Assembly (NCBI GenBank): GCA_041906765.1
Contig: JAYRIP010000005.1
Coordinates: forward strand, 1,581 to 65,580
Direction of reading: 5' to 3'
Source of the DNA: Candidatus Saccharimonadales bacterium
Lineage (GTDB): Bacteria > Patescibacteriota > Saccharimonadia > Saccharimonadales > JAYRRP01
Length of the DNA: 64,000 nt
Under the pieces are notes generated by a model that saw only the letters and a list, made by a program, of their open reading frames with translations, was not told where the DNA came from and ran no database searches. The translations under genes and the position numbers were made by a program. Of the stretch, positions 2,073 to 59,408 are shown piece by piece. Position 1 is the first letter of the stretch. Each line of letters opens with the position of its first letter.

Positions 2073-2447
2073 ATGCAAACGAGTGGTAAACCTGTACAAT
2101 TTCAGGGTGATGCAAGCGGATATTTTATCGCTACACTAGTCGGTATACTGACGATGTACATAATAATTGTCGGTTGGCCAATCGGATTCAATTACATGGC
2201 CAATTGGATAATCTCCAACACCATCGTTGACGGCAAAAGATTGAAGTACTCAGCTACCTATAGTGAAACTCTTGGATTTCTTACTCTAAACATGCTGCTG
2301 GTTATAGTTACTTTTGGTATATATTCATTCTGGTTTGTGCCTAAAGCTTACAGATTCGCATTGGACCACACCACCTATTTAGGTGCACCCACTACGCCAG
2401 CGCCTGCAACCGCAAAAAGTGCCCCTACACCAACGCCAGCTGCCTAG
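2073..2447 (+). CDS. small membrane protein, DUF898/YjgN-like half-domain
   Basis: Two TM helices and a TFGIYSFW motif resembling the TLGIYxPW signature of DUF898. The C-terminal tail is Pro/Ala/Thr-rich. Confidence 0.4.
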   Translation: MQTSGKPVQFQGDASGYFIATLVGILTMYIIIVGWPIGFNYMANWIISNTIVDGKRLKYSATYSETLGFLTLNMLLVIVTFGIYSFWFVPKAYRFALDHTTYLGAPTTPAPATAKSAPTPTPAA

Positions 2448-2935: not shown

Positions 2936-2959
2936 TCAGCCCATAATAGCATGAGCGTA

Positions 2960-3430
2960 TTAAAAGCTCAGCTTTTGGCCATCCGTAATACCGGCTTCAT
3001 CGCTCACGCCTGCAGAAACTTCTATGACATATTTAGCTGGCACATCCGGGCAAAACTCTTGCGGATAGGTCTCCGGCTTAAGATTCCTCTCGATGTGGAG
3101 CACTTTCTTATCCCTGTCTATCCATATGATATCAAGTGGAAATTTCATCCCTTTCATCCAAAAACATTGCGTGCCGGATTTGCTAAATACAAAGAGCATA
3201 CCCTTATCGTGGTTAAGAGTGGTATATTTCGACAATCCAATGGCTCGAGCCTCGGGTGTACGAACAATCTCAAGATTTATCCGGTTCTTTCCTAAAACCA
3301 CCGCCACACCTGTGCGCCGGTTCATCACCCACAATGAGACAGCCAAGATAATAATTACAGAGACAGCTATCGCTAAATTGCGTCGGGATTTATGCGCCCA
3401 CACGATCCTTACGCCTTTTGCCGCGGGCAT
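2960..3430 (-). CDS. DUF192 domain protein with N-terminal membrane anchor
   Basis: Readable DUF192-type motifs: ARAIGLS, GMLFVF, FWMKGMKFPLDIIWID. It overlaps the rimK 3' end by 41 nt on the same strand. Confidence 0.7.
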   Translation of the reverse strand: MPAAKGVRIVWAHKSRRNLAIAVSVIIILAVSLWVMNRRTGVAVVLGKNRINLEIVRTPEARAIGLSKYTTLNHDKGMLFVFSKSGTQCFWMKGMKFPLDIIWIDRDKKVLHIERNLKPETYPQEFCPDVPAKYVIEVSAGVSDEAGITDGQKLSF

Positions 3431-4295
3431 TTTGCTCGATGTATTCTATCACTTTTTCAGCCACGTTTTTTCCAGTTACCTGTTCGGGCGAACTAAAACT
3501 TGCAGAAGAATTAACTTCCAGAACAAGTGGCCCGTGATTAGAACGGAGCATATCTACTCCACAAATTGGTAATCCCATGGATCGGGCAGCCTTTATAGCC
3601 GCTTTTTCCTCATCCGGTTTTAGTCTCACTTTTCTGCCAACCCCCCCTTGATGAGTATTGGAGCGGAAATCATCATCTAAACTCTGTCTTTTTATACTTG
3701 CCACTACCCTTCCACCAACCACTAACACCCGAAGGTCCATGCCGGCCGATTCAGCAATATATTCCTGCACCAAAAAGCTTACACCTTCTACATAAAAAGC
3801 TTGCATTACAGCTTGAGCTGCCTTTTTGGTTTCGGCGAGTACCACACCGTTCCCATGTGTTCCTCGGGCTACCTTTATTATTACCGGAACACCTCCGGCT
3901 TGTTCTATAACATCGTTGAAGTCTGCAGTCTCACGAGCAAAAACTGTTTTCGGCACCCCGATGCCACTTTTTGCCATAAGTTGATAGGAACGTAATTTAT
4001 CACGCGAACGCGTAATGGCTATAGAGCTTGCTGTTGTAAATACCCCCCTCATTTCAAATTGCCGTACTATTGAGCTACCGTATTTCGTTAAGCTGGTAGC
4101 AATCCGGGGAATGACTGCATCTATATCACTTAAGTCTTCACCCTCATAACGGACCACCGGGTTATTACGCTCAACAGTGACATAACACTTGGCATAATTA
4201 ATAACCCACACCGTATGTCCGCGCTTTTCCGCTTCTTCTTTAAGGCGTCTCGTAGAATAATTCCCTGGTCCCTGAGATAAAATAGCTATTTTCAT
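3390..4295 (-). CDS. rimK: RimK-type ATP-grasp alpha-L-glutamate ligase (ribosomal protein S6 modification-like)
   Basis: 301 aa, alignable by eye along its length to E. coli RimK: MKIAILS, DAVIPRI, RQFEM, SRDKLRS, GTHGNGVVLAET, VQEYI, FRSNTHQGG, GVDMLRSNHGPLVLEVN. Confidence 0.9.
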   Translation of the reverse strand: MKIAILSQGPGNYSTRRLKEEAEKRGHTVWVINYAKCYVTVERNNPVVRYEGEDLSDIDAVIPRIATSLTKYGSSIVRQFEMRGVFTTASSIAITRSRDKLRSYQLMAKSGIGVPKTVFARETADFNDVIEQAGGVPVIIKVARGTHGNGVVLAETKKAAQAVMQAFYVEGVSFLVQEYIAESAGMDLRVLVVGGRVVASIKRQSLDDDFRSNTHQGGVGRKVRLKPDEEKAAIKAARSMGLPICGVDMLRSNHGPLVLEVNSSASFSSPEQVTGKNVAEKVIEYIEQNARGKRRKDRVGA

Positions 4296-4305
4296 AATTT
4301 GTATC

Positions 4306-5616
4306 CTACCCTTTCAGCTTATTCTGTAAAAACCTGGCCATTGCGGTATATTTCTCTGTTAAAAATGTCCCTGTTGCAAGTTGTGGTCCGTCGTTTACTT
4401 CAAAACAATACCACGAACCAGTTTTCTTGTCCTGTACCATATCGATACCTGCAATCTCGCGGTCTAAAAGCAAAGCTGCTTGAATACTGTCTCGTTGTAC
4501 TTTGGTGGCAATATCCTCAATATTGATAAGCTTCGCGTTGCCACCCTTTGAAGTGTTGTTCAGGTGCGAAGTATCTTTACTTTGACGATGAATTATCAGT
4601 CCGACTCTTTTACCAAACACGAGCAACCTGTAATCACCGTCATTTGGTATAAATTTTTGACCAATAAGCCGAACCTCGGCTTTGGTGGCTTTTTTTATCG
4701 CTTGTCTAAATGACTTCTCGTCTTTCACCAAAAAGTTATAATCGCCTTTTTTGCCATGAATGTCCTTCAGCACAAATGGTAGACCCAAAGCAGTAGAAAA
4801 GTCATGATACATTTGCTTTAAGCGCGGGCCAGCCACAAACAAACTATCTGGTACCGTAATCCCATTCGGACTTAATATAAAGTACTGATACAGCTTGCTG
4901 CTAGCTTGGAAGTGCAGAACAGCTTGATCGAAAAAAGGTATGTGCCGTGCAGTTAAATAGCGAGCAATCGTGGCTGCAAGGTCTTGGTAATTGGCTGTGG
5001 TTTTAAAGTACACCAGGTCGAACGTAGCCACATCCTGTCCGCTGTCATTGGTGGTTATGGAAGCTCGATTATTTTTAATCTGAAAATTAAGATCCTCGTA
5101 GGTATACACAGTAAAGCTTACGTTATTAGCAGCACTTCCTAGATTTTTTGCATACCGCTCAAGGGTCTTTGTTTTCTTCATCGACAGTATGAGTACGCGG
5201 TAGTTATCTTTAAGAGCTGACTTCGTCACATCAACCAGAAACTTACCATGCAACGTGCGACGTCCGATAAGGATAGGAAAGCGATTATTGGCACGGTTCG
5301 CAAGCGTAAACCGAACCCAGATAGTCCGTCCGCCTATGATCGTTTTGAGACGAACTTTGTAGCGGAATTCTGTCTCACCGAAGGAGTTTTTGACTGAGCG
5401 GATTTGAAAATGTCGGGTCTTCAGCTTTTTGCCGTTATAAAAAGGGGATGGTCGATCAAATAATCGAAAGGTTAACAAGCCATCTTTCTCATGAATGTCA
5501 CTAGCCCAAATAGCGGATCCATCCGCTCCGGTGTCAACCTTGGCGGGCACAGCTTTAATACCATCATTGGGCAATGAGACAAGTTCAACGTTACCGATAT
5601 GTTGTAGTTGAGGCAT
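4306..5616 (-). CDS. fusion protein: N-terminal retropepsin-like 'ATP-dependent zinc protease' (RimB-type) domain plus C-terminal RimK-like ATP-grasp ligase
   Basis: The N-terminus carries AKVDTGADGSAIWA and ILIGRRTL..FLVDV, typical of the PF05618-like family. The C-terminal half has an ATP-grasp layout (VLKD..GKKG, LIGQKFIP, DYRLLVFG, NTSKGG, GIDMV, EVNDGPQL). Confidence 0.8.
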   Translation of the reverse strand: MPQLQHIGNVELVSLPNDGIKAVPAKVDTGADGSAIWASDIHEKDGLLTFRLFDRPSPFYNGKKLKTRHFQIRSVKNSFGETEFRYKVRLKTIIGGRTIWVRFTLANRANNRFPILIGRRTLHGKFLVDVTKSALKDNYRVLILSMKKTKTLERYAKNLGSAANNVSFTVYTYEDLNFQIKNNRASITTNDSGQDVATFDLVYFKTTANYQDLAATIARYLTARHIPFFDQAVLHFQASSKLYQYFILSPNGITVPDSLFVAGPRLKQMYHDFSTALGLPFVLKDIHGKKGDYNFLVKDEKSFRQAIKKATKAEVRLIGQKFIPNDGDYRLLVFGKRVGLIIHRQSKDTSHLNNTSKGGNAKLINIEDIATKVQRDSIQAALLLDREIAGIDMVQDKKTGSWYCFEVNDGPQLATGTFLTEKYTAMARFLQNKLKG

Positions 5617-5702
5617 TGTTACTTTTCCACGTCTTTAGGCAAAATAGCATAAATTTCGTAGTCTTTTAGTTAATTATAAACTATTTGATACTTATAGTCA
5701 AT

Positions 5703-5819
5703 CTACGGAGCAGCTCTTTTGACTCGTATATAAACAAGTATAATTGCCGCTATCAAGACCGCCAAAAGCGTCAACATAAGAGGAATAAAGCCATTCTGAC
5801 CAAGACGCTTTAGTTTCAT
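5703..5819 (-). CDS. 38-aa single-TM peptide (not in ORF track), hypothetical
   Basis: Manual translation gives MKLKRLGQNGFIPLMLTLLAVLIAAIILVYIRVKRAAP, a basic N-terminus followed by one TM helix. No homology could be assessed. Confidence 0.25.
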   Translation of the reverse strand: MKLKRLGQNGFIPLMLTLLAVLIAAIILVYIRVKRAAP

Positions 5820-5859
5820 ATATACCTATTGTAAAAGACATGCGTATAAACACAACCAG

Positions 5860-5889
5860 TTGACTGACATAGGCTTTTTATGCTATAAT
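5860..5889 (+). promoter_or_regulatory. near-consensus sigma70-type promoter (TTGACT-18 nt-TGcTATAAT) for the GGDEF gene
   Basis: TTGACT lies at 5860-5865 and an extended -10 TGCTATAAT at 5881-5889. The ATG at 5896 is only 6 nt after the -10 hexamer, implying a leaderless mRNA. Confidence 0.55.
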
Positions 5890-5895
5890 ATACAC

Positions 5896-6627
5896 ATGAA
5901 TGAAGGTTTTGCCTCCGAGCGTGATTTGCATCAGCGTGCCCGTCAAGCTTCCCGCGAACGCTTAGCGAATTCTACTAAAGATATACGAGCCTTGACTACA
6001 GCTAACGCAGGTCTAAAAGCTGCGGTGCAATATCAGCAGACAGTACTTAACTGGGTAAACGCCGAGAGAGACTATTGGCATGAACAGGCTACACACGACT
6101 CCCTTACAAATCTTCTTAACAAACGTGGTCTTGATGAGCAGTTATCCAAAAAGCTTGAGCAAGCAACCGAAGAAGATAATATTGGCCTGTTTTATATAGA
6201 CCTGACTAATTTTAAGCGTGTCAATGACGAACAAGGACATCAAATGGGTGATGCAGTTTTAGTAAGTGTTGCAAATATTTTGAAATATACTTTCCGAAAA
6301 GATGATGCGCTCTCTTATGTGGGCAGGACAGGCGGCGATGAATTCATTGCACTATGCGACCTGCAACCTCGACCAGACCGAGATAATGCACTATCGGCAG
6401 AAGAAAGGATGCAGCATATTAAAGATAGGTTAGCCACCGAGTTTAATCATTTCCGTCAAGGGATAATTGAAGGGGGGCCATCTTTGGAGTCAATGAAGTT
6501 CGACGTTTCCATCGGACAGGCAATCTGGACGCCTGGCGCAAATGCCGAAGATTTTATAGCGCTAGCCGAGCATGATATGTACGAACACAAGAACCAGCAA
6601 CACGAGGCACACGGATCATATCGCTAA
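5896..6627 (+). CDS. GGDEF-domain diguanylate cyclase with N-terminal coiled-coil
   Basis: Intact GGDEF active-site motif (GRTGGDEFIAL) and upstream D-x-LT-x-L-x-NRR-like DSLTNLLNKRG. The track ORF begins at TTG 5860, but the ATG at 5896 fits the promoter better. Confidence 0.85.
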   Translation: MNEGFASERDLHQRARQASRERLANSTKDIRALTTANAGLKAAVQYQQTVLNWVNAERDYWHEQATHDSLTNLLNKRGLDEQLSKKLEQATEEDNIGLFYIDLTNFKRVNDEQGHQMGDAVLVSVANILKYTFRKDDALSYVGRTGGDEFIALCDLQPRPDRDNALSAEERMQHIKDRLATEFNHFRQGIIEGGPSLESMKFDVSIGQAIWTPGANAEDFIALAEHDMYEHKNQQHEAHGSYR

Positions 6628-8939
6628 CCGGACTTTGGTGGCGAAGGCTTTTCGTCATTCCCATGCTTTAGGAGCAAGTAAATTGCAATGCCGATTATTG
6701 TAAGCCCCACTAATGCGAGCGCGATAAACGTTAATTCCCGCAATTGGTAGAGTACTGCCAAAATAGAAGCAACCAAACCCCACTTTATTACCAATCGTCT
6801 GCCAATAGCCATACCGAGTAATACCAAACAAATTTGTTCGGCAATAAGTAGCCAACCATAACCTCCGCCTGCACTATCCAGTGCCATTATGGCGGTAGGC
6901 AGAGTGAAGGCAACCAAGGCAAGAATAGTATAAGATTCTTCTTCGTTCTTTTGGCGACGACGGGTAGCCACATACGCATAAAAGGCAAATAATGCCGCCC
7001 ACAGGTGACTATAGACAAGTACATTGTGCACTCCCCAAAAACCGATAAGCCACTGGAAAGCTGCCATGCCCAACATGCCAGCGACATACTGTGAGGCAAT
7101 ATTTTTTCGTTCCTTTGCATACACGAATAGCAGCGCCGCGGTTAGCGCAAGATCGGCAATCATTGGTACCGTTGTGTCGCCAAATACCACAACACTGGCT
7201 GCACCGGCCGCCGCACCGAATATTGCAACCTCTTGCCACTGGGCAAAATACCGGACCTTTTTAAGTTGCACCGCAACCCAGTACATAAGAAGTGCAAGCA
7301 GACCAAAACACGAGGGGACAATCAAAGGGAAATCAACATGTGACAGACTAAGAAAAGTTATAGTCGAAACAAAAATCAGCACACCAGAAGCAATCCAAAG
7401 CTCTTTTACTCTTTCATACAGGCCCAATAGGCCTACAATGAGCGCAAAACAACTACTCATTAGTGCGGCATAAAACCGCCCTCCGTTCAGAGCCACTGCA
7501 TAGGATATTGATAAGCCAATTGCATATGTTGCCTGGATAGTTTGTATGAAAAACTTGTTACTCGATCCTATCCGTAAACACAGTGCCAAGCTTGCAGTGC
7601 CAAGATACAACAGGGCAAGTTGCGCTGCCTGCATGGCTGGATGCAACCAATACACACCAACCACAGCCGGTAGCATTGTCCAGGCGATGGCCGCAACCAT
7701 TGCAGGAAATAGCTCTGCAGTCAGCCAATACACCACTAATTGCTGAAGGACAAGTACGCCCAATGAGATGCTGAAGTAGGCAGCGTCATCAACGAAAAAC
7801 AAACAGGAGAGGAGTATTGCTGCCTGTACTACCACATATACTGCCCATTCTGTTTCTAATAATGCTGCAGGTTGTTGACGAGGTTTTGCACGCAATGCAT
7901 AAATAATGCCGGTCTGTAGCAATGCAATACCACCCAGGATTGCTCCAACCACATGCGTGTTTCTCGAAATATCCCAACAAACTAAGCTTGCAGCTGTTAT
8001 CGCGCAAACATCACCAAAAACAATGAACCACATCGTCGTTAAGGAGCCGGAAGTTTTGCGGTCAGTATAGCTAAGGACAAAGTAGTATACAGACGCCAAT
8101 GTAAAAGCAGCGCTTGCCTGCAAAAACCCAAACTGCTCAATGGACATTAATGCAAAAACTAACGAAACAGGTATTAAAATGGTTGACGCAAACTCCAGTG
8201 GTCCTTGTGACTCTCTGGGCACTTTTCCAAACCGCGGCAAAAGCATAAACAAAGTGCCGCAAAGTGACATCACAATTCCGAAATAATAGACTGGTAACTC
8301 TACTATCGCCACGCCTGACATAAACAGCGACAAAAAAGCAGCCAACAAAAAGTAGACACTAAACGTATGTCGGGTACGTAGTAGTGCGTGGACGTATATA
8401 CCCATTGCAACAGCCGAGGTCATACACCACACGGCGGCCGCGTGAGTACGTCCAAACATGAATACATATGACGCAAAGCCAACAAACGGGATGAGTATCA
8501 TGCCGATCGCAATAAATGAAAGTCCAGCGGGCTTCAACCGGTGAATGTGACGGAATAAATACATGCCAAGGACATAAAACCCAGTAGCTACTAGCGCAGT
8601 TAGTACTGTCCTGGTCGTACCACCAAGGCCTGCAAATGCGATAAACAGACCAACTGCAGATGTAAACAGAAAGGCCCCCAAATAGAGAAGGATGGTTGCA
8701 TTATCCACAGGTTTTGGCGGTGGGGGAGGCGCTATGCCTGCAACAACGGCAGTATTAGCTGATATTGGACTTGCAGCTGTTACCGCAGCATTAGAGGCAG
8801 CCTGGTCTTGTCCGCCGCTGCCATATAGCATTGTGCGCAAATTCGCGTTTTCATCGTATAGTTCACGAAGGCGCTTTTTGGAGCTGTGACTCCCTACATA
8901 AGCCCCAAGTAAAAAAATTAGAATAACAAGCAAAAACAT
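6624..8939 (-). CDS. large polytopic membrane protein (about 20 TM helices), DUF2339-like architecture
   Basis: 771 aa: N-terminal TM, short coiled segment, Pro-rich linker (PPPPPKP), then many TM helices. The family assignment is from memory of the architecture only. Confidence 0.5.
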   Translation of the reverse strand: MFLLVILIFLLGAYVGSHSSKKRLRELYDENANLRTMLYGSGGQDQAASNAAVTAASPISANTAVVAGIAPPPPPKPVDNATILLYLGAFLFTSAVGLFIAFAGLGGTTRTVLTALVATGFYVLGMYLFRHIHRLKPAGLSFIAIGMILIPFVGFASYVFMFGRTHAAAVWCMTSAVAMGIYVHALLRTRHTFSVYFLLAAFLSLFMSGVAIVELPVYYFGIVMSLCGTLFMLLPRFGKVPRESQGPLEFASTILIPVSLVFALMSIEQFGFLQASAAFTLASVYYFVLSYTDRKTSGSLTTMWFIVFGDVCAITAASLVCWDISRNTHVVGAILGGIALLQTGIIYALRAKPRQQPAALLETEWAVYVVVQAAILLSCLFFVDDAAYFSISLGVLVLQQLVVYWLTAELFPAMVAAIAWTMLPAVVGVYWLHPAMQAAQLALLYLGTASLALCLRIGSSNKFFIQTIQATYAIGLSISYAVALNGGRFYAALMSSCFALIVGLLGLYERVKELWIASGVLIFVSTITFLSLSHVDFPLIVPSCFGLLALLMYWVAVQLKKVRYFAQWQEVAIFGAAAGAASVVVFGDTTVPMIADLALTAALLFVYAKERKNIASQYVAGMLGMAAFQWLIGFWGVHNVLVYSHLWAALFAFYAYVATRRRQKNEEESYTILALVAFTLPTAIMALDSAGGGYGWLLIAEQICLVLLGMAIGRRLVIKWGLVASILAVLYQLRELTFIALALVGLTIIGIAIYLLLKHGNDEKPSPPKSG

Positions 8940-9015: not shown

Positions 9016-10113
9016 TTAGTGATCGTTGTGTAATTCTTCTAAAAGCTCACGTTGTTTTCTGCTCAGCTTTGTCGGGGTATCTACTAATACGGTGACAATG
9101 TGAGCTCCGCGACTCCCGCCTCGCATGTGTGGTACACCGTGATGGGACAATTTAAAATCCGTTCCACTTTGGGTGCCAGCTGGAATCTTCATAGTCACTG
9201 GACCATCCACAGTTTCTACTTCTATATGAGTGCCCAAGGCTGCGCCTACCATATCGACATGTTCCTCACTTAAAATAAGATCGCCCTCCCTGGTAAAACG
9301 TTTGTGAGGTTTTACCCGAATATTCACGTACATGTCTCCTTTCGGTCCATTTGCGACCGCCTCGCCATGTTCCCTGAGCCGAATAGTTGCACCGTCATCA
9401 ATGCCAGCCGGAATCTTTAACCCAATTGTTTGAGACTTCATCTTTGTGCCCTTACCATGACACACGGTACAGGCTTTTTCAGGAATTTTTCCTCGGCCAT
9501 GACACTTAGGACAAATGGTGGCCTGCTGTATATTGCCAAATATCGTACGTGTTACATTGACTACCTGCCCACTCCCCTTACAGGTGTCACATGTTTTAAG
9601 TTCGTACCCTGGCTCAACAGTCGTGCCTTTACAATGTTCGCAAGTATCTTCTAGGTTGAGTTTCACATCAACTTCCGTACCAAAAACTGCTTGCTCAAAT
9701 GTAAGTTCTACGCTTGTTTCGACGTCTCGCCCTCGAGCTGAGTGAGAGCGTGCCCGCGCATTATTGCCATTAAATCCACCGCCAAAAAAACTTCCTAAAA
9801 TATCGCCAAGCCCGAGGTCACCAAAGTCAAAGTGGATCTCTTGCCCTTGCGCACCTCCAAAACCAGCAAATGGATTACCATCGCTCGCCGCACTACTGCC
9901 AATGCCAGCATGCCCAAATTGATCGTAACGTTTCCGTTTGGATTCATCCTTCAGTACTTCATACGCTTCATTGACCTCTTTGAACTTCGCTTCGTCTCCA
10001 CCCTCTTTATCGGGATGGTACTGCACAGCTAAACGCCGAAACGCCTTTTTAATCTCATCAGCGCTCGCATTTTTATTTACGCCCAGTACTTCGTAGTAAT
10101 CGCGTTTAGCCAT
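9016..10113 (-). CDS. dnaJ: molecular chaperone DnaJ
   Basis: J-domain with HPD (YHPDKE), a G/F-rich region and four CxxCxGxG zinc-finger repeats. Confidence 0.95.
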
Positions 10114-10426
10114 TGATTATTTCCTTTTCTAGCCACTTTGTAGCATCTTTGGAAATCTTTAGTATAGGAATTGCTTCTAAGACAAAAGTGTCGTAGCTAT
10201 GAAGTTCAGTAATTTCGGCCTCAATTTTACCAACTAAATCCACTCTGGACTCCATAACTAAAAGTATTTCCTTGTCATTTTCTATCTTACCCTTCCACCA
10301 ATAGTTGGCTACAATTGGAAGCTGTTTCGCGCAGGCTACTAGACGTTTCTTAAGTAACTGGGAAGTGATTGTATCGGCCTCAGTTTCATCCTTACATGTA
10401 AGCCAAAGCTGACAAAAATCAGCCAT
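10106..10426 (-). CDS. cutA: CutA1 divalent-cation tolerance protein family
   Basis: 106 aa with the CutA-like pattern (LVACA...Y.WKG.I....E..L..K). Its start overlaps the dnaK stop by 1 nt and its stop overlaps the dnaJ start by 8 nt. Confidence 0.75.
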
Positions 10427-12353: not shown

Positions 12354-12866
12354 TTACATCTCCTCTTTATTCTTTTCGTTAATTATTCTCTGCATCTTTA
12401 CTCTTACCATTGCATGGCGGATTACTTCATCACCCAACTGATACCCGGCTTGGAGTTCTTCACTGACTACCTCCGTATCACCATCCTCATTGTCATCCAT
12501 ACTGACTGCCTCGTGCAGGCGCGGATCAAAGACCTTACCCACCGTCTCTATCCGCGTCACACCAATGTCGCTTAGTGTCTTGCCGAATTGCTTAACCACC
12601 CCCTCCACTCCTTTTACATACCCATTACCTTCCAACTCCTTTGGCACATGTGTGAGAGCACGCTCTAAATTGTCGATAACTGGCAGAAGTTCCCGTACTA
12701 CGTTTGCTTTTACAAGGGTTTTAAGATTGGCAAACTGCTCATCATGACGGCGACGCATATTGTTCGCATCAGCCCGTTCACGCTGTAATGCTTCAGTTAG
12801 CTCATCAATTTGTTGTTGCAGCTTTGCTAATTTATCAGCTGATTTGGGTTTCGCAGCTTTAGGCAT
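12354..12866 (-). CDS. grpE: nucleotide exchange factor GrpE
   Basis: Coiled-coil N-terminus and GrpE C-terminal beta domain (FDPRLHEAV...GY.L.D.VIRHAMV). It sits between hrcA and dnaK. Confidence 0.9.
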
Positions 12867-13578
12867 ATAGCACCTCCTCTAACGCCTCGCCTGCCCTACG
12901 AACGAGCAACATCACATCACGGTAACTCTGTCTCGTTGGACCTAACACTCCTATATAGCTTCGGTCTGAGTAAGGACTATGGAACTTACTCACAATCAGA
13001 GAGCAGCCTGCACCTGCCCCAACTGGATTCTCGCTGCCAATATACACATTTAAAGGTTGATTCGGCGCAGCTTCACGCAGCCAAGGTTCCAAGTTATCGA
13101 GCAAACTAGCCACTTCACGTACCTGTTGGGGATGCATGAATTCCGGCTGTCCAAAAAGATTAGAAAGCCCGCTCATGTACAGTTGGTTGCCTATCGTAGC
13201 CAACCCCAAATTATGCGTTAATTCCACAAGTGTATCCACCGCATTACGAATGGTGCGCTCAGGTAGTCCGGCTCTTTCAACCCGGGCGGTTAAGGCCCGC
13301 TCAGCACGTCGCTCTGCCGGTGTCTCATCAAGATTTTCCGGTAAATTATTCACATAATACCGATACCCCTTGTCTGTGGGCACACGGCCCGCACTGGTAT
13401 GCGGCTGCTTAATCAGACCTTGGCGTTCTAGTTCGGCCATTTCGGCCCGCACGGTGGCAGAAGAAACCCCAAAAGCTTTCGCCAGCAAACTTGAGCCCAC
13501 CGGGCTCGCAACTTCGGCATATTGCTCAACGATTGCCTGTAATATCTTCTGCTGTCTTTCTGACAAATGTTCATTCAT
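12859..13578 (-). CDS. hrcA: heat-inducible transcription repressor HrcA (compact, about 239 aa)
   Basis: N-terminal wHTH (LSERQQKILQAIVEQY...PVGS..L) and the HrcA C-terminal signature GVLGPTRQSYRDVM. ATG 13578 is preferred over the track TTG at 13590. It overlaps grpE by 8 nt. Confidence 0.85.
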   Translation of the reverse strand: MNEHLSERQQKILQAIVEQYAEVASPVGSSLLAKAFGVSSATVRAEMAELERQGLIKQPHTSAGRVPTDKGYRYYVNNLPENLDETPAERRAERALTARVERAGLPERTIRNAVDTLVELTHNLGLATIGNQLYMSGLSNLFGQPEFMHPQQVREVASLLDNLEPWLREAAPNQPLNVYIGSENPVGAGAGCSLIVSKFHSPYSDRSYIGVLGPTRQSYRDVMLLVRRAGEALEEVLYA

Positions 13579-13614
13579 ATAGCACTTCAACCTACTAAGT
13601 GCTAGTGTAGCGTC

Positions 13615-13641
13615 CTAGCACTCTATAGTCAAGAGTGCTAG
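13615..13641 (-). promoter_or_regulatory. CIRCE operator (HrcA binding site)
   Basis: CTAGCACTC-N9-GAGTGCTAG is a perfect 9-bp inverted repeat matching the CIRCE consensus TTAGCACTC-N9-GAGTGCTAA at 16 of 18 positions. It lies 37 nt upstream of the hrcA ATG. Confidence 0.85.
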
Positions 13642-22116: not shown

Positions 22117-22163
22117 ATAATATATCTTCATTATTTTGACAAATTAGTGTAAAACATTAATTG

Positions 22164-22769
22164 ATGAGTGAAGAGTTCCCTTCTAACTATTTAATGGAAG
22201 AATTGGCTTGCCCTAGTGAACTTCCGGATATCACATACACGAAGCAAGTAGCCAGTTACGTAATAGGAATGCACGAAGAACTTCCACAGATAACTTCCAC
22301 TACCGAAGTTAAACTTGCTCAAAACGCACTACGACTAATCACATCCGACCCCAACAATGTCCATGACCAAAGAGGTGTATCGAGAATCGAGAAAAACAAA
22401 ACCATGAAAACCCGTTTCCAGGAAGTGAATGAAAATATCACCAATGCTGGTAGTCCAGTTTACCGAAGACTCAAGTTTGACCTAACCAAGCATCGTATTA
22501 GCACACAACCATTAGACGAATCGTGGAGAGAGTCTGCTGCCTGTAAGGGAATGGATGTAGAGATCTTCTATGATTCCGATAATAGAGAGAAAATAAAAGA
22601 AGCACTAAAGGCATGCAAAGCCTGTGAGGTACGCGCGGAGTGTCGCAAGTATGCAGAAGATGCAGATATAGAATGGGGTATTTGGGCCGGGGATTTAAAG
22701 GTACCAGATGGTAAGATACCAAAAAACTTTACTCGAATTAAAGAAGAAGTAGAAAAAGATCAAGAGTAA
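22164..22769 (+). CDS. WhiB-like (Wbl) Fe-S transcription factor domain protein with long N-terminal extension
   Basis: The C-terminal 70 aa carry the full Wbl signature: C-x25-C-x2-C-x5-C (AACKG...ACKACEVRAEC) followed by the turn motif WGIWAG and a basic tail. About 125 aa of unmatched N-terminal sequence precede it. Confidence 0.8.
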   Translation: MSEEFPSNYLMEELACPSELPDITYTKQVASYVIGMHEELPQITSTTEVKLAQNALRLITSDPNNVHDQRGVSRIEKNKTMKTRFQEVNENITNAGSPVYRRLKFDLTKHRISTQPLDESWRESAACKGMDVEIFYDSDNREKIKEALKACKACEVRAECRKYAEDADIEWGIWAGDLKVPDGKIPKNFTRIKEEVEKDQE

Positions 22770-57716: not shown

Positions 57717-59408
57717 ATGCATTTAAGTATCTTTGCTGAGCTAAGTCTAATAATCGCCCTCGCCGCTTTTATTTCGCTGATTATGCGTCTTATTCGGCAG
57801 CCGTTAATTATCGGGCATATCCTAACGGGTATTATCGTTGGCCCGTCAGTTTTGCACTTGATAAAATCGCCCGAAACAATTGAGATTTTTGCAAGTATCG
57901 GCATTGCCCTACTGCTTTTTATTATCGGTTTGGGATTAAACCCACAGGTTATTAAAGAAGTCGGCAAAGTATCCACGATTACTGGAGTATTGCAAGTGGC
58001 CGGCGTTACGGTGCTCGGTGGGGCTGTCGGTATAGTGCTGGGCTTTGGTAAAACAGAGTCACTCTTTTTCGGTCTTGCGCTTGCCTTCAGTAGCACGATT
58101 ATCATCCTGAAACTTCTCAGCGATAAAAAGGAACAGTCTCGGCTTTATGGCAAGGTGGTAATTGGTTTGTTATTAGTCCAAGATATTATCGCGGTCTTTG
58201 CTTTACTGCTTGTTACCTCCAAAGCAAACGGTGGCATCCAACCCGCACAGCTCGGGGCATTACTGGCAAAAGGAACACTTATTTCTGTGCCCATTTTGTT
58301 TTTTGGCGGGGTTCTGCTTCCCAAACTCCATAAACTCATAGCCGGCAGTCCGGAATTTTTATTTCTCTTCGCACTTGGCTGGGGTTTCGGCGCAGCGGCT
58401 TTGTTTGAACAAGCCGGCTTTTCTCTAGAGATCGGTGCTTTACTTGCCGGCGTATCACTTGCTTCTTTGCCCTACGCCCAAGAAATCAGTGCGCGGTTAC
58501 GGCCGTTAAGAGACTTTTTTATTATCGTATTCTTTATTACCTTAGGCGCTCGCCTTACATTTGGCCATATCTCACTGCTCATACCAACTATCCTGATGGG
58601 ATGTTTTATAGTTATTGTTCTTAAGCCCATAGTAGTGCTGTCAATCATGGGACTGTTGGGCTATACCAAGCGAACAAGTTTTAAGGCAGCATTGTCTACT
58701 GCTCAAATTAGTGAATTTTCCTTAGTATTGCTATTGCTGGGTAATAGCCAGCATCTTGTCTCAAACGATTTAGTGGTTATTATTACTGTTATTGCGCTCG
58801 TATCGATTGCTTGTTCAGCATATCTGATTATTTATTCGGATGGTTTGTTCAAATTTGCCGACAAATACTTTACCTTATTTGAACGTCGTAAAACCCATTT
58901 CGAACAAGATGGGCGACACCATTATGACATGGTACTTTTTGGTTACCGCAAAGGTGGCCATGAGTTTATGAAAGCTTTTCAGGCAATTGGCAGACGGTTT
59001 GTCGTGGTTGATTATGACCCCGAGGTTATCGATATGTTGGAGCAACAAAAAGTTAATTATCTATATGGCGACGTAGGTGATATTGAGTTACTCGAAGAAA
59101 TCGGATTAGAAAAAGTAAGGCTGGTTGTTTCCACTATTACCGACTTCCCCACTACCCATGTGTTAGTGTCGCAACTACTTAATCGAAATCCACATATGGT
59201 CATTGTTTGTCACGCCGATTCGCTACAACAAGCCGAACAGCTTTATGATGCCGGCGTCAGCTATGTCATGATGCCACATTATCTTGGTAGTGAAAAAATC
59301 AGTGCCTTCATTAAACGCAGTGGCATTAAAAAGAGCGAGTTTAAGAAATTCCGTGAAAAACACCTAGCCTATCTCCATAGTCATTATGAAGCGGATAACG
59401 AAGAGTAA
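57717..59408 (+). CDS. cation:proton antiporter (CPA2/Kef-type) with C-terminal RCK/TrkA-N domain
   Basis: About 12 TM helices with an N-terminal Kef-like motif (QPLIIGHILTGIIVGP). The C-terminal Rossmann-like region reads VLFGYRKGGHEF. Confidence 0.85.
   Translation: MHLSIFAELSLIIALAAFISLIMRLIRQPLIIGHILTGIIVGPSVLHLIKSPETIEIFASIGIALLLFIIGLGLNPQVIKEVGKVSTITGVLQVAGVTVLGGAVGIVLGFGKTESLFFGLALAFSSTIIILKLLSDKKEQSRLYGKVVIGLLLVQDIIAVFALLLVTSKANGGIQPAQLGALLAKGTLISVPILFFGGVLLPKLHKLIAGSPEFLFLFALGWGFGAAALFEQAGFSLEIGALLAGVSLASLPYAQEISARLRPLRDFFIIVFFITLGARLTFGHISLLIPTILMGCFIVIVLKPIVVLSIMGLLGYTKRTSFKAALSTAQISEFSLVLLLLGNSQHLVSNDLVVIITVIALVSIACSAYLIIYSDGLFKFADKYFTLFERRKTHFEQDGRHHYDMVLFGYRKGGHEFMKAFQAIGRRFVVVDYDPEVIDMLEQQKVNYLYGDVGDIELLEEIGLEKVRLVVSTITDFPTTHVLVSQLLNRNPHMVIVCHADSLQQAEQLYDAGVSYVMMPHYLGSEKISAFIKRSGIKKSEFKKFREKHLAYLHSHYEADNEE

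Follow-up and report, generated by a model that had tools for sequence, protein, structure and literature searches.

The opposing activities of RimK and RimB of Pseudomonas on ribosomal protein S6 (RpsF), together with stimulated synthesis of free poly-alpha-glutamate, are established (PMC4741518, PMC7343187, PMC11957791). RimBK hybrids, single polypeptides with an N-terminal RimB domain followed by a RimK-family ATP-grasp domain, have also been described and assayed, for example DP2392 of Desulfotalea psychrophila (Little et al. 2025, PMC11957791). The RimB part of DP2392 is an active poly-glutamate protease that cleaves glutamylated RpsF (PMC11957791). In the survey reported in that work, 12% of rim-positive accessions had rimBK and 0.9% had rimBK plus an extra rimK; one Saccharibacterium only, TM7x, was included and was scored only for rimK (PMC11957791). 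Here we analyze a Rim-type locus in a 64,000-nucleotide stretch of contig JAYRIP010000005.1 from Candidatus Saccharimonadales bacterium, hereafter referred to as the window. The locus encodes a RimB-like retropepsin domain fused to a second ATP-grasp domain (grasp2), a RimK and several small membrane proteins. With moderate confidence, we consider that its most likely mechanism is that of a Rim-type operon that writes and erases glutamate tails and whose eraser is tethered to an additional ligase of changed specificity. A literature search found no paper linking RimK with Saccharibacteria.

The locus resembles Pseudomonas rimABK (Little 2016; Grenga 2020; PMC4741518, PMC7343187) in that a RimK orthologue adjoins a RimB-type retropepsin bearing a DTG motif. 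By analogy, the expected chemistry would also be shared, with ATP-dependent addition of alpha-glutamate set against a poly-glutamate-specific endopeptidase. It differs in that RimA, an EAL protein, is missing, the nearby cyclic di-GMP (c-di-GMP) gene is a non-conserved synthase, RimB is joined to an additional ligase, the locus also encodes membrane proteins and the host is a Patescibacterium with a reduced genome. With the RimBK hybrids the locus shares the order of domains within one polypeptide. In contrast to the hybrids, however, the fused ligase is not the RimK of the genome but a divergent paralogue (about 27% identity to the neighboring RimK, R211 replaced by Leu, score below the cut-off of the RimK family model), an orthodox rimK lies 10 nucleotides (nt) downstream, and the same pair is also found fused in the reverse order. 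The first-pass annotation of this DNA had proposed a Rim module in which a canonical RimK is accompanied by a second ATP-grasp ligase that carries a fused RimB-like domain. Both components are indeed present, although a fusion of this kind had already been published (PMC11957791). What is new is that the ligase fused to RimB is a distinct, remodeled paralogue and not RimK itself, and that the arrangement is the norm across a phylum-level lineage of minimal genomes, where it occurs in both fusion orders and with conserved membrane genes alongside.

The host of the window is a Saccharibacterium (TM7, Patescibacteria). The identical locus is present on three metagenome contigs. Database relatives of the 436-residue fusion protein number more than 700; among them the best 120 are nearly all 433-455 residues long, contain the same two Pfam domains and are 45-57% identical to it, and those with names are assigned to Saccharimonadia, Saccharimonadales or Patescibacteria. 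Saccharibacterial genomes measure about 1 Mb; the organisms rely on host bacteria and are not known to make their own amino acids. The reduced appearance of the genome, noted in the first-pass annotation, is consistent with such a host. A scan of one genome per species revealed at least 466 confirmed relatives of the fusion, and 80 species-level loci, designated by L numbers, were examined with the window proteins by means of tblastn and iterated hidden Markov models (HMMs) run on all open reading frames (ORFs). Almost all of the 80 loci come from Saccharibacterial metagenome-assembled genomes. Gene order is kept across these Saccharibacteria/Patescibacteria loci, and since the arrangement recurs in 80 species-level loci, drawn from the 466 or more confirmed matches, it is more than chance. 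In the window itself, the four genes named in the first-pass annotation (fusion, rimK, DUF192 and GGDEF) were located in the ORF list exactly at the coordinates that it gave, and all four domains that it proposed exceed the Pfam gathering thresholds (Table 1).

The RimK of the window matches PF18030, the pre-ATP-grasp domain Rimk_N, with 125.2 bits and PF08443, the RimK ATP-grasp domain, with 195 bits. It scores 247.2 bits with the NCBIfam model TIGR00768 (cut-off 143.4) and 318.5 bits with the S6-ligase equivalog NF007764 (cut-off 331). With 7QYR, 5ZCT and 4IWX used as alignment references, residues 1-290 align to P. aeruginosa RimK 7QYR (312.8 bits) and residues 1-291 to E. coli RimK (4IWX, 5ZCT, 5ZK6; 281 bits), the latter end to end and with all ATP/Mg residues as well as R211, N213 and H215 in place. 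Orthologues are 60-77% identical across loci. In 76 Saccharibacterial RimKs, residues S7, R64, K100, K141, E178, D187, R189, R203, R211, N213, H215, D248, E260 and N262 (E. coli numbering) are invariant. Six of the seven poly-glutamate contacts of P. aeruginosa RimK (PMC10092738), S7, S14, R64, S68, R189 and N262, are kept in the window protein; the seventh, R8, is Gln. Given the invariant catalytic residues and the retained contacts, we regard the window RimK, on the strength of these alignments, as an orthodox alpha-L-glutamate ligase. Unlike the system of the window, E. coli RimK has no RimB partner and limits tail length itself.

The RimB-like domain of the fusion matches the sequence of PDB entry 9G59. 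In 115 fusion homologues the catalytic D28-T29-G30-A31 and G118 (in an I-L-I-G118-R motif) are invariant, and the G118-R motif is invariant or nearly so. Both motifs are signatures of retropepsins. In RimB, the DTG motif supplies the catalytic Asp, and a conservative mutation of this residue abolishes cleavage (PMC11957791). In the AlphaFold2 (AF2) model, the RimB domain is all-beta over residues 5-128, and the model of the whole fusion is confident throughout, with a mean predicted local distance difference test score (pLDDT) of 93.3 and a predicted template modeling score (pTM) of 0.83. The RimB equivalog NF052261 gives 54.9 bits, below its cut-off of 200; by this standard the domain is to be classed, from its sequence, as a divergent relative and not as an equivalog. 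The N-terminus of the fusion (MPQLQHIGNVELVSLP) has no hydrophobic leader, and the RimB domain should therefore be cytoplasmic.

The second ATP-grasp domain scores 91 bits with TIGR00768, below the family cut-off of 143.4. A Foldseek search with the C-terminal 300 residues of the fusion returned RimK structures 5ZCT, 7QYS and 4IWX as best matches (E about 1e-17), followed by ArgX and LysX. When 66 grasp2 sequences are aligned, 65-66 of them retain the residues at E. coli RimK positions K100, K141, R189, R203, D248, E260 and N262 (in the numbering of the fusion they include K284, D392, E406 and N408). The ATP/Mg residues, on which the two-ligase proposal of the first-pass annotation depended, are thus in place. 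Substrate-binding positions are replaced: the R211 position is occupied by Leu in 64 of the 66 sequences and never by Arg, the H215 position by Ser in 48, the E178 position is variable, and the N-domain contacts to poly-glutamate are not retained. The loop concerned reads …FRSNTHQGG in RimK, …WITNTARGG in LysX and …HLNNTSKGG in grasp2. We considered whether loss of the catalytic Arg marks a dead ligase and rejected this, as LysX of T. thermophilus (3VPD), an active ligase, has Ile at the same position. Enzymes of the LysX/ArgX–LysW systems (3VPD, 3VPB, 5K2M) share with grasp2 the RimK-family fold, being the next-best fold matches after RimK, and LysX in addition resembles grasp2 in its N-T-x-x-G-G loop and in having a hydrophobic residue where RimK has R211. 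The locus nevertheless differs from these systems: with the LysX equivalog TIGR02144, grasp2 scores 57.3 bits, far below the cut-off of 275.6, the cluster contains no LysW-like carrier with an acidic C-terminus (its small ORF ends …RVKRAAP), and no genes of lysine or arginine pathways lie nearby. A conserved nucleotide- and Mg-binding set combined with a uniformly remodeled substrate loop suggests that the enzyme works, but on another substrate, and grasp2 is probably a ligase of altered specificity rather than a dead one.

Architectural variants of the locus bear on the relation between the protease and the second ligase. The RimB::grasp2 fusion is the majority arrangement in the 80 loci. The reverse fusion, grasp2::RimB, occurs in L067, L068, L070 and L077, and the two parts are encoded by separate genes in L059, L061 and L082. 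Fifteen loci have plain rimB and rimK with no grasp2, while 63 of the 80 carry the extra remodeled ligase. The sole true RimB::RimK fusion is found in L066. High-scoring segment pairs from tblastn had suggested a retropepsin fused to canonical RimK in many loci; this was rejected, as the ORFs revealed separate genes with an intervening stop codon. A profile search of 1.84 billion cluster representatives returned 878 matches below 1e-30, and the best 150 of these comprise about 40 RimB::grasp2 fusions, about 45 reversed fusions and about 45 stand-alone grasp2 proteins (clusters at 50% identity). The occurrence of RimB and grasp2 fused in both orders, and also as separate genes, argues for joint action of the protease and this ligase, and we take the two opposite-order fusions as good evidence for it.

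The conserved order of the locus is dnaJ, a variable gap, a small ORF, the gene or genes for RimB and grasp2, rimK, in some loci a DUF192 gene, and a gene for a membrane protein of 160-170 residues. Within the unit, median intergenic distances are 9-35 nt and overlaps are frequent. In 76 loci rimK adjoins the retropepsin-bearing gene; the median gap between the two is 9 nt, and they overlap in 15 cases. The three same-strand genes recognized in the first-pass annotation (fusion, rimK and DUF192) thus form part of a conserved unit with operon-like spacing. This close downstream spacing fits a single transcript running from the fusion gene through the gene for the predicted protein with five transmembrane (TM) segments. 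A σ70-like promoter sequence is located between the stop codon of the small ORF and the ATG of the fusion. Synteny stops immediately past the five-TM gene. The next gene, encoding a DUF898/DUF6693-like protein, is conserved only in L019 and therefore marks the downstream end of the unit.

Two genes of the unit were absent from the first-pass annotation. The gene for the 163-residue five-TM protein, TM163, is the most conserved downstream partner: in 69 of the 80 loci when searched by iterated HMM, and in 40 by tblastn alone, a homologue is the next same-strand gene downstream of rimK or DUF192. TM163 has no Pfam or NCBIfam match and only 14 word-based homologues; its AF2 model has a pLDDT of 71, and Foldseek against the PDB returned nothing below E = 1. 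The other gene is the small ORF at the head of the unit. In 35 of 82 loci, homologues of 36-45 residues with the motif N-Q-x-G-F-I-P-L-L-I…Y-x-R-V-H-H precede the rimB-bearing gene by no more than 400 nt, and in several further loci the small ORF lies farther upstream, ahead of inserted genes. It was independently annotated by gene callers in L002 and L089; no Pfam or NCBIfam family matches the 38-residue product. Around its G-F the peptide looks like a prepilin leader, except that Glu is missing at +5. As for DUF192, its membership of the module, put forward in the first-pass annotation, stands as far as position, domain and the overlap with rimK are concerned, but the gene is an accessory present in only 28 of the 80 loci. 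In these it always lies between rimK and TM163, with start-stop overlaps with rimK in 11 of the 28. Of 29 DUF192 homologues, 23 have an N-terminal hydrophobic segment. The domain matches PDB entries 3M7A and 3PJY, both structures without an assigned function, and a literature search found no functional study of DUF192. The gut-associated lineages L075 and L078 retain only rimB and rimK, so the membrane genes are typical accessories and not obligatory.

Table 1. Features of the Rim-type locus and other features of the window (window coordinates)
Feature	Coordinates	Strand	Remarks
RimB::grasp2 fusion gene, 436 residues	4306-5616	-	PF05618 and PF08443 in one ORF
RimB-like retropepsin domain, residues 1-135	5212-5616	-	PF05618, residues 7-136, 56.7 bits (cut-off 27)
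grasp2, second ATP-grasp domain, residues 139-436 and stop codon	4306-5202	-	PF08443, residues 239-414, 68.1 bits (cut-off 21)
rimK, canonical alpha-L-glutamate ligase (predicted), 301 residues	3390-4295	-	PF18030 and PF08443; starts 10 nt after the fusion stop
DUF192 gene, 156 residues	2960-3430	-	N-terminal membrane anchor; PF02643, 104.9 bits; overlaps rimK by 41 nt
TM163, predicted five-TM protein, 163 residues	2444-2935	-	basic His-rich C-tail (HRKGGKHHGKHH); 24 nt after DUF192
Small ORF, 38 residues (MKLKRLGQNGFIPLMLTLLAVLIAAIILVYIRVKRAAP)	5703-5819	-	single-pass membrane peptide with basic C-tail; heads the unit, 87 nt before the fusion
Putative σ70-like promoter, TTGACT-17-TATAAT	5673-5701	-	11/12 consensus match
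Stand-alone GGDEF diguanylate cyclase, 243 residues	5896-6627	+	PF00990, 108.8 bits; intact GGDEF signature; divergent
Promoter-like site with TG extension	5860-5889	+	11/12 consensus match; ends 7 nt before the GGDEF ATG at 5896
DUF898/DUF6693-like small membrane protein gene	2073-2447	+	convergent with the five-TM gene; stop codons overlap by 4 nt
CIRCE (HrcA operator) inverted repeat, CTAGCACTC-N9-GAGTGCTAG	13615-13641		directly upstream of hrcA
202-residue protein ending …EEVEKDQE	22161-22769	+	acidic C-terminus
Na+/H+ exchanger–TrkA_N protein ending …YEADNEE	57717-59408	+	acidic C-terminus

The analysis establishes which domains are present, which residues are conserved, how the genes are ordered and spaced, and how the locus is distributed across genomes; from this we infer enzymatic activities, a target, a role for grasp2 and co-transcription as follows. 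The unit would be transcribed as an operon from the promoter just upstream of the 436-residue gene. RimK would extend glutamate tails on a protein C-terminus (that of S6, by homology) and/or make free poly-alpha-glutamate. The RimB domain would pair with a second copy, form a two-aspartate active site and trim poly-glutamate. The grasp2 domain would bind ATP/Mg, and its acceptor loop is remodeled in a LysX-like manner (R211→L, H215→S); a functional ligase whose specificity for acceptor or donor has changed is the most likely reading. It might, for example, place the initial residue on a C-terminus that is unusable for RimK by itself, and it would physically tether the protease to the ligase machinery. 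The membrane genes (the 38-residue peptide, the anchored DUF192 protein and the five-TM protein) would be lineage-typical accessories, and the GGDEF cyclase a variable neighbor, not a component.

Several points weigh against this mechanism. The enzymatic activities are predicted from sequence, and the promoter is called from its consensus match. Loss of R211, H215 and the N-domain poly-glutamate contacts in grasp2 is also compatible with a non-catalytic ATP-binding scaffold. A conserved link to three membrane or extracytoplasmic proteins is unexpected for a purely ribosomal modification. Saccharibacterial genomes are perhaps broadly syntenic; if so, some of the adjacency may be inherited and not functional. 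The RimBK of D. psychrophila failed to glutamylate Pseudomonas RpsF in vitro (PMC11957791), which suggests that fused ligase domains may not act on S6. Finally, S6 is assigned as the putative acceptor by homology. A tblastn search with S6 sequences of E. coli, B. subtilis, T. thermophilus and M. tuberculosis, plus S18 and single-stranded DNA-binding protein, did not find rpsF in the window, in the flanking sequence on either side of it or in 90 loci, and weak S6 matches were dismissed as GrpE or antisense artefacts. The suggestion of the first-pass annotation that the target may be other than S6 is thus neither supported nor refuted.

The first-pass annotation had proposed that the module is regulated by c-di-GMP, a signal from the neighboring cyclase modulating RimK as in Pseudomonas rimABK. 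The geometry that it described is accurate: the GGDEF gene is divergent and lies 279 bp from the fusion (about 280 bp had been given), counted from the ATG at 5896, which gene callers use on three other contigs. A TTG start at 5860 is very probably wrong, since it falls inside the promoter-like site and the gene callers choose the ATG. It is also correct that the enzyme, with a GGDEF domain of intact signature, is a synthase and not a phosphodiesterase; no RimA-type EAL gene was detected near the unit with Pfam. Short stand-alone GGDEF genes do recur at the junction in diverse relatives, between dnaJ and the unit in eight of the 58 loci with dnaJ visible (L005, L006, L013, L019, L021, L038, L077 and L090; about 13%), one of the eight being a contig identical to the window. 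Such recurrence is probably more than random placement of a rare class of gene would produce, and is equally explained by patchy retention of an ancestral neighbor in a syntenic region. A conserved four-gene neighborhood that includes the cyclase is not what we found: the gene is missing from about 87% of the loci and, of the three loci whose fusions are closest to that of the window (54-57% identity), two lack it and one carries it. Every copy is placed on the side of the small ORF that faces dnaJ, outside the unit and usually on the opposite strand, and the copy in the window has a promoter-like site of its own. Most copies keep [GS]GDEF or GGEEF, but the signature is degenerate in L005 (PMGDEF) and L021 (HGDEY). 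The window contains no other GGDEF gene and no c-di-GMP riboswitch, Rfam returning three tRNAs only. The c-di-GMP site of RimK has not been located even in Pseudomonas (PMC10092738), so that its conservation cannot be scored. With the cyclase in about 13% of loci, outside the unit and behind its own promoter, the link to c-di-GMP is not supported, and we consider a two-ligase peptide-tailing system under c-di-GMP control quite improbable.

The lost substrate contacts of grasp2 also allow that, within the preferred mechanism, it is a pseudo-enzyme that binds ATP without ligating and oligomerizes with RimK to dimerize or position RimB, in place of a non-covalent RimB–RimK contact. Fusion to RimB in either order would suit such a role, as would the plain rimB and rimK of 15 loci, which imply that grasp2 is dispensable for the basic system; moreover, Pseudomonas RimB binds RimK and changes its ATPase activity (PMC10092738, PMC7343187). 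Retention of the Mg/ATP residues together with R189 and R203 in 65-66 of 66 sequences that are 28-57% identical is, however, more typical of a working enzyme, and the change of R211 to a hydrophobic residue is common to active LysX, which leaves the pseudo-enzyme unlikely in our view. The membrane genes raise the alternative that the module does not act on S6 but makes poly-alpha-glutamate, either free or attached to a carrier, or some other short peptide, which would be exported or handled at the membrane, with the 38-residue peptide, the anchored DUF192 protein and the five-TM protein as anchor, exporter or receptor. A loose parallel is RloABC of P. aeruginosa (PMC12239564), where one gene cluster combines a retropepsin-like protease with an ATP-grasp protein of the cytoplasm and a protein of the inner membrane. 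The five-TM protein closely follows the ligases in most loci (gaps of 9-35 nt) up to the point where synteny breaks, DUF192 translationally overlaps rimK in a good part of its loci, at least 35 of 82 loci have the small membrane peptide at the head of the unit, and the basic His-rich tails of this peptide and of the five-TM protein could bind a polyanion. RimK is known to make free poly-alpha-glutamate, stimulated by RimB (PMC11957791). The five-TM protein, however, matched no transporter fold or family, and the gut-associated lineages that keep rimB-rimK without membrane genes imply that the ligase/protease pair works without them. The parallel with RloABC is limited too: RloA is secreted, whereas the retropepsin domain of the fusion has no signal peptide; RloB is a seven-TM inactive transglutaminase, and no transglutaminase-like protein was found in the cluster with Pfam or NCBIfam; RloC belongs to another ATP-grasp subfamily, whose model TIGR02291 gave no match for the fusion and 27.7 bits for RimK. 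We give a module devoted to something other than S6 a small probability. A more speculative idea, which we regard as a long shot, is a C-terminal 'tail code' machine resembling the enzymes of tubulin, in which grasp2 would initiate, RimK elongate and RimB erase. Its target would be not S6 but something membrane-associated, such as the co-encoded 38-residue peptide or the five-TM protein, or a surface-directed polymer, and some relatives would extend the system with a MATCAP/DUF1704-like carboxypeptidase and a cyanophycin-synthetase-like ligase.

In the preferred mechanism, a Rim-type operon with an added ligase, maintenance of a module that consumes ATP and glutamate in at least 466 species-level genomes, with the extra ligase in 63 of the 80 loci examined, argues that the Rim system is important for Saccharibacterial physiology. 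Stress responses or attachment to the host are possible settings. For studies of RimK, the lineage offers a natural second-ligase variant, two independent protease–ligase fusions and, for comparison, lineages with plain rimB and rimK. If grasp2 does have a new specificity, the known chemistry of bacterial C-terminal protein tailing would be widened. The c-di-GMP connection of Pseudomonas should not be extrapolated to Saccharibacteria from one neighboring gene.

Acidic C-termini occur in two proteins of the window only, neither of them in the cluster (Table 1); both are weak candidates for acceptors of glutamate tails. As nothing links them to the cluster, they were rejected as alternative acceptors. 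Two ORFs encoding 114-159 residues, 2951-3295 (+) and 3093-3572 (+), are antisense to the DUF192 and rimK genes; without support, they are almost certainly not genes.

The distance of 7 nt from the promoter-like site to the ATG of the GGDEF gene suggests that its mRNA is leaderless or nearly so. A gene for a 771-residue polytopic membrane protein, 6624-8939 (-), is arranged tail-to-tail with the GGDEF gene, with a 4-nt overlap. The protein has a sub-threshold match (18.3 bits, cut-off 27.4) to MASE6, a sensor domain typical of c-di-GMP enzymes, and only L011 and L055 have a homologue in the interval that separates dnaJ from the rim unit.

The unit comes after the heat-shock operon hrcA-grpE-dnaK-cutA1-dnaJ, which in the window spans 12859-13590 (hrcA) down to 9016-10113 (dnaJ); its CutA1-like gene (10106-10426) separates dnaK from dnaJ. 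The unit starts no more than 350 nt from dnaJ in about half of the loci. Heat-shock co-regulation of the rim genes was considered and rejected: the sole controlling inverted repeat of chaperone expression (CIRCE) in the window precedes hrcA, and there is none before the rim genes.

In about 16 related loci a gene for a MATCAP/DUF1704-like ('QEGLA') putative carboxypeptidase of about 450 residues lies between dnaJ and the rim genes; the window has none. Examples are L076:4543-5928 (PF08014, 68.5 bits), L044:4447-5961 and L011:4586-5980. This gene is often paired with a third ATP-grasp gene, whose product resembles the ligase domain of cyanophycin synthetase (221 bits); intervals paired with the carboxypeptidase entry are L011:3546-4493, L044:3482-4438, L047:4891-5826 and L059:4931-5884. 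The two proteins are a putative further pair for addition and removal of C-terminal residues. In the gut-associated loci L075:7826-9260 (-) and L078:7799-9235 (-), rimK is followed by opposite-strand genes for small basic proteins of 75, 115, 64 and 187 residues, which, judged by size, may be the products of infC-rpmI-rplT plus one more.

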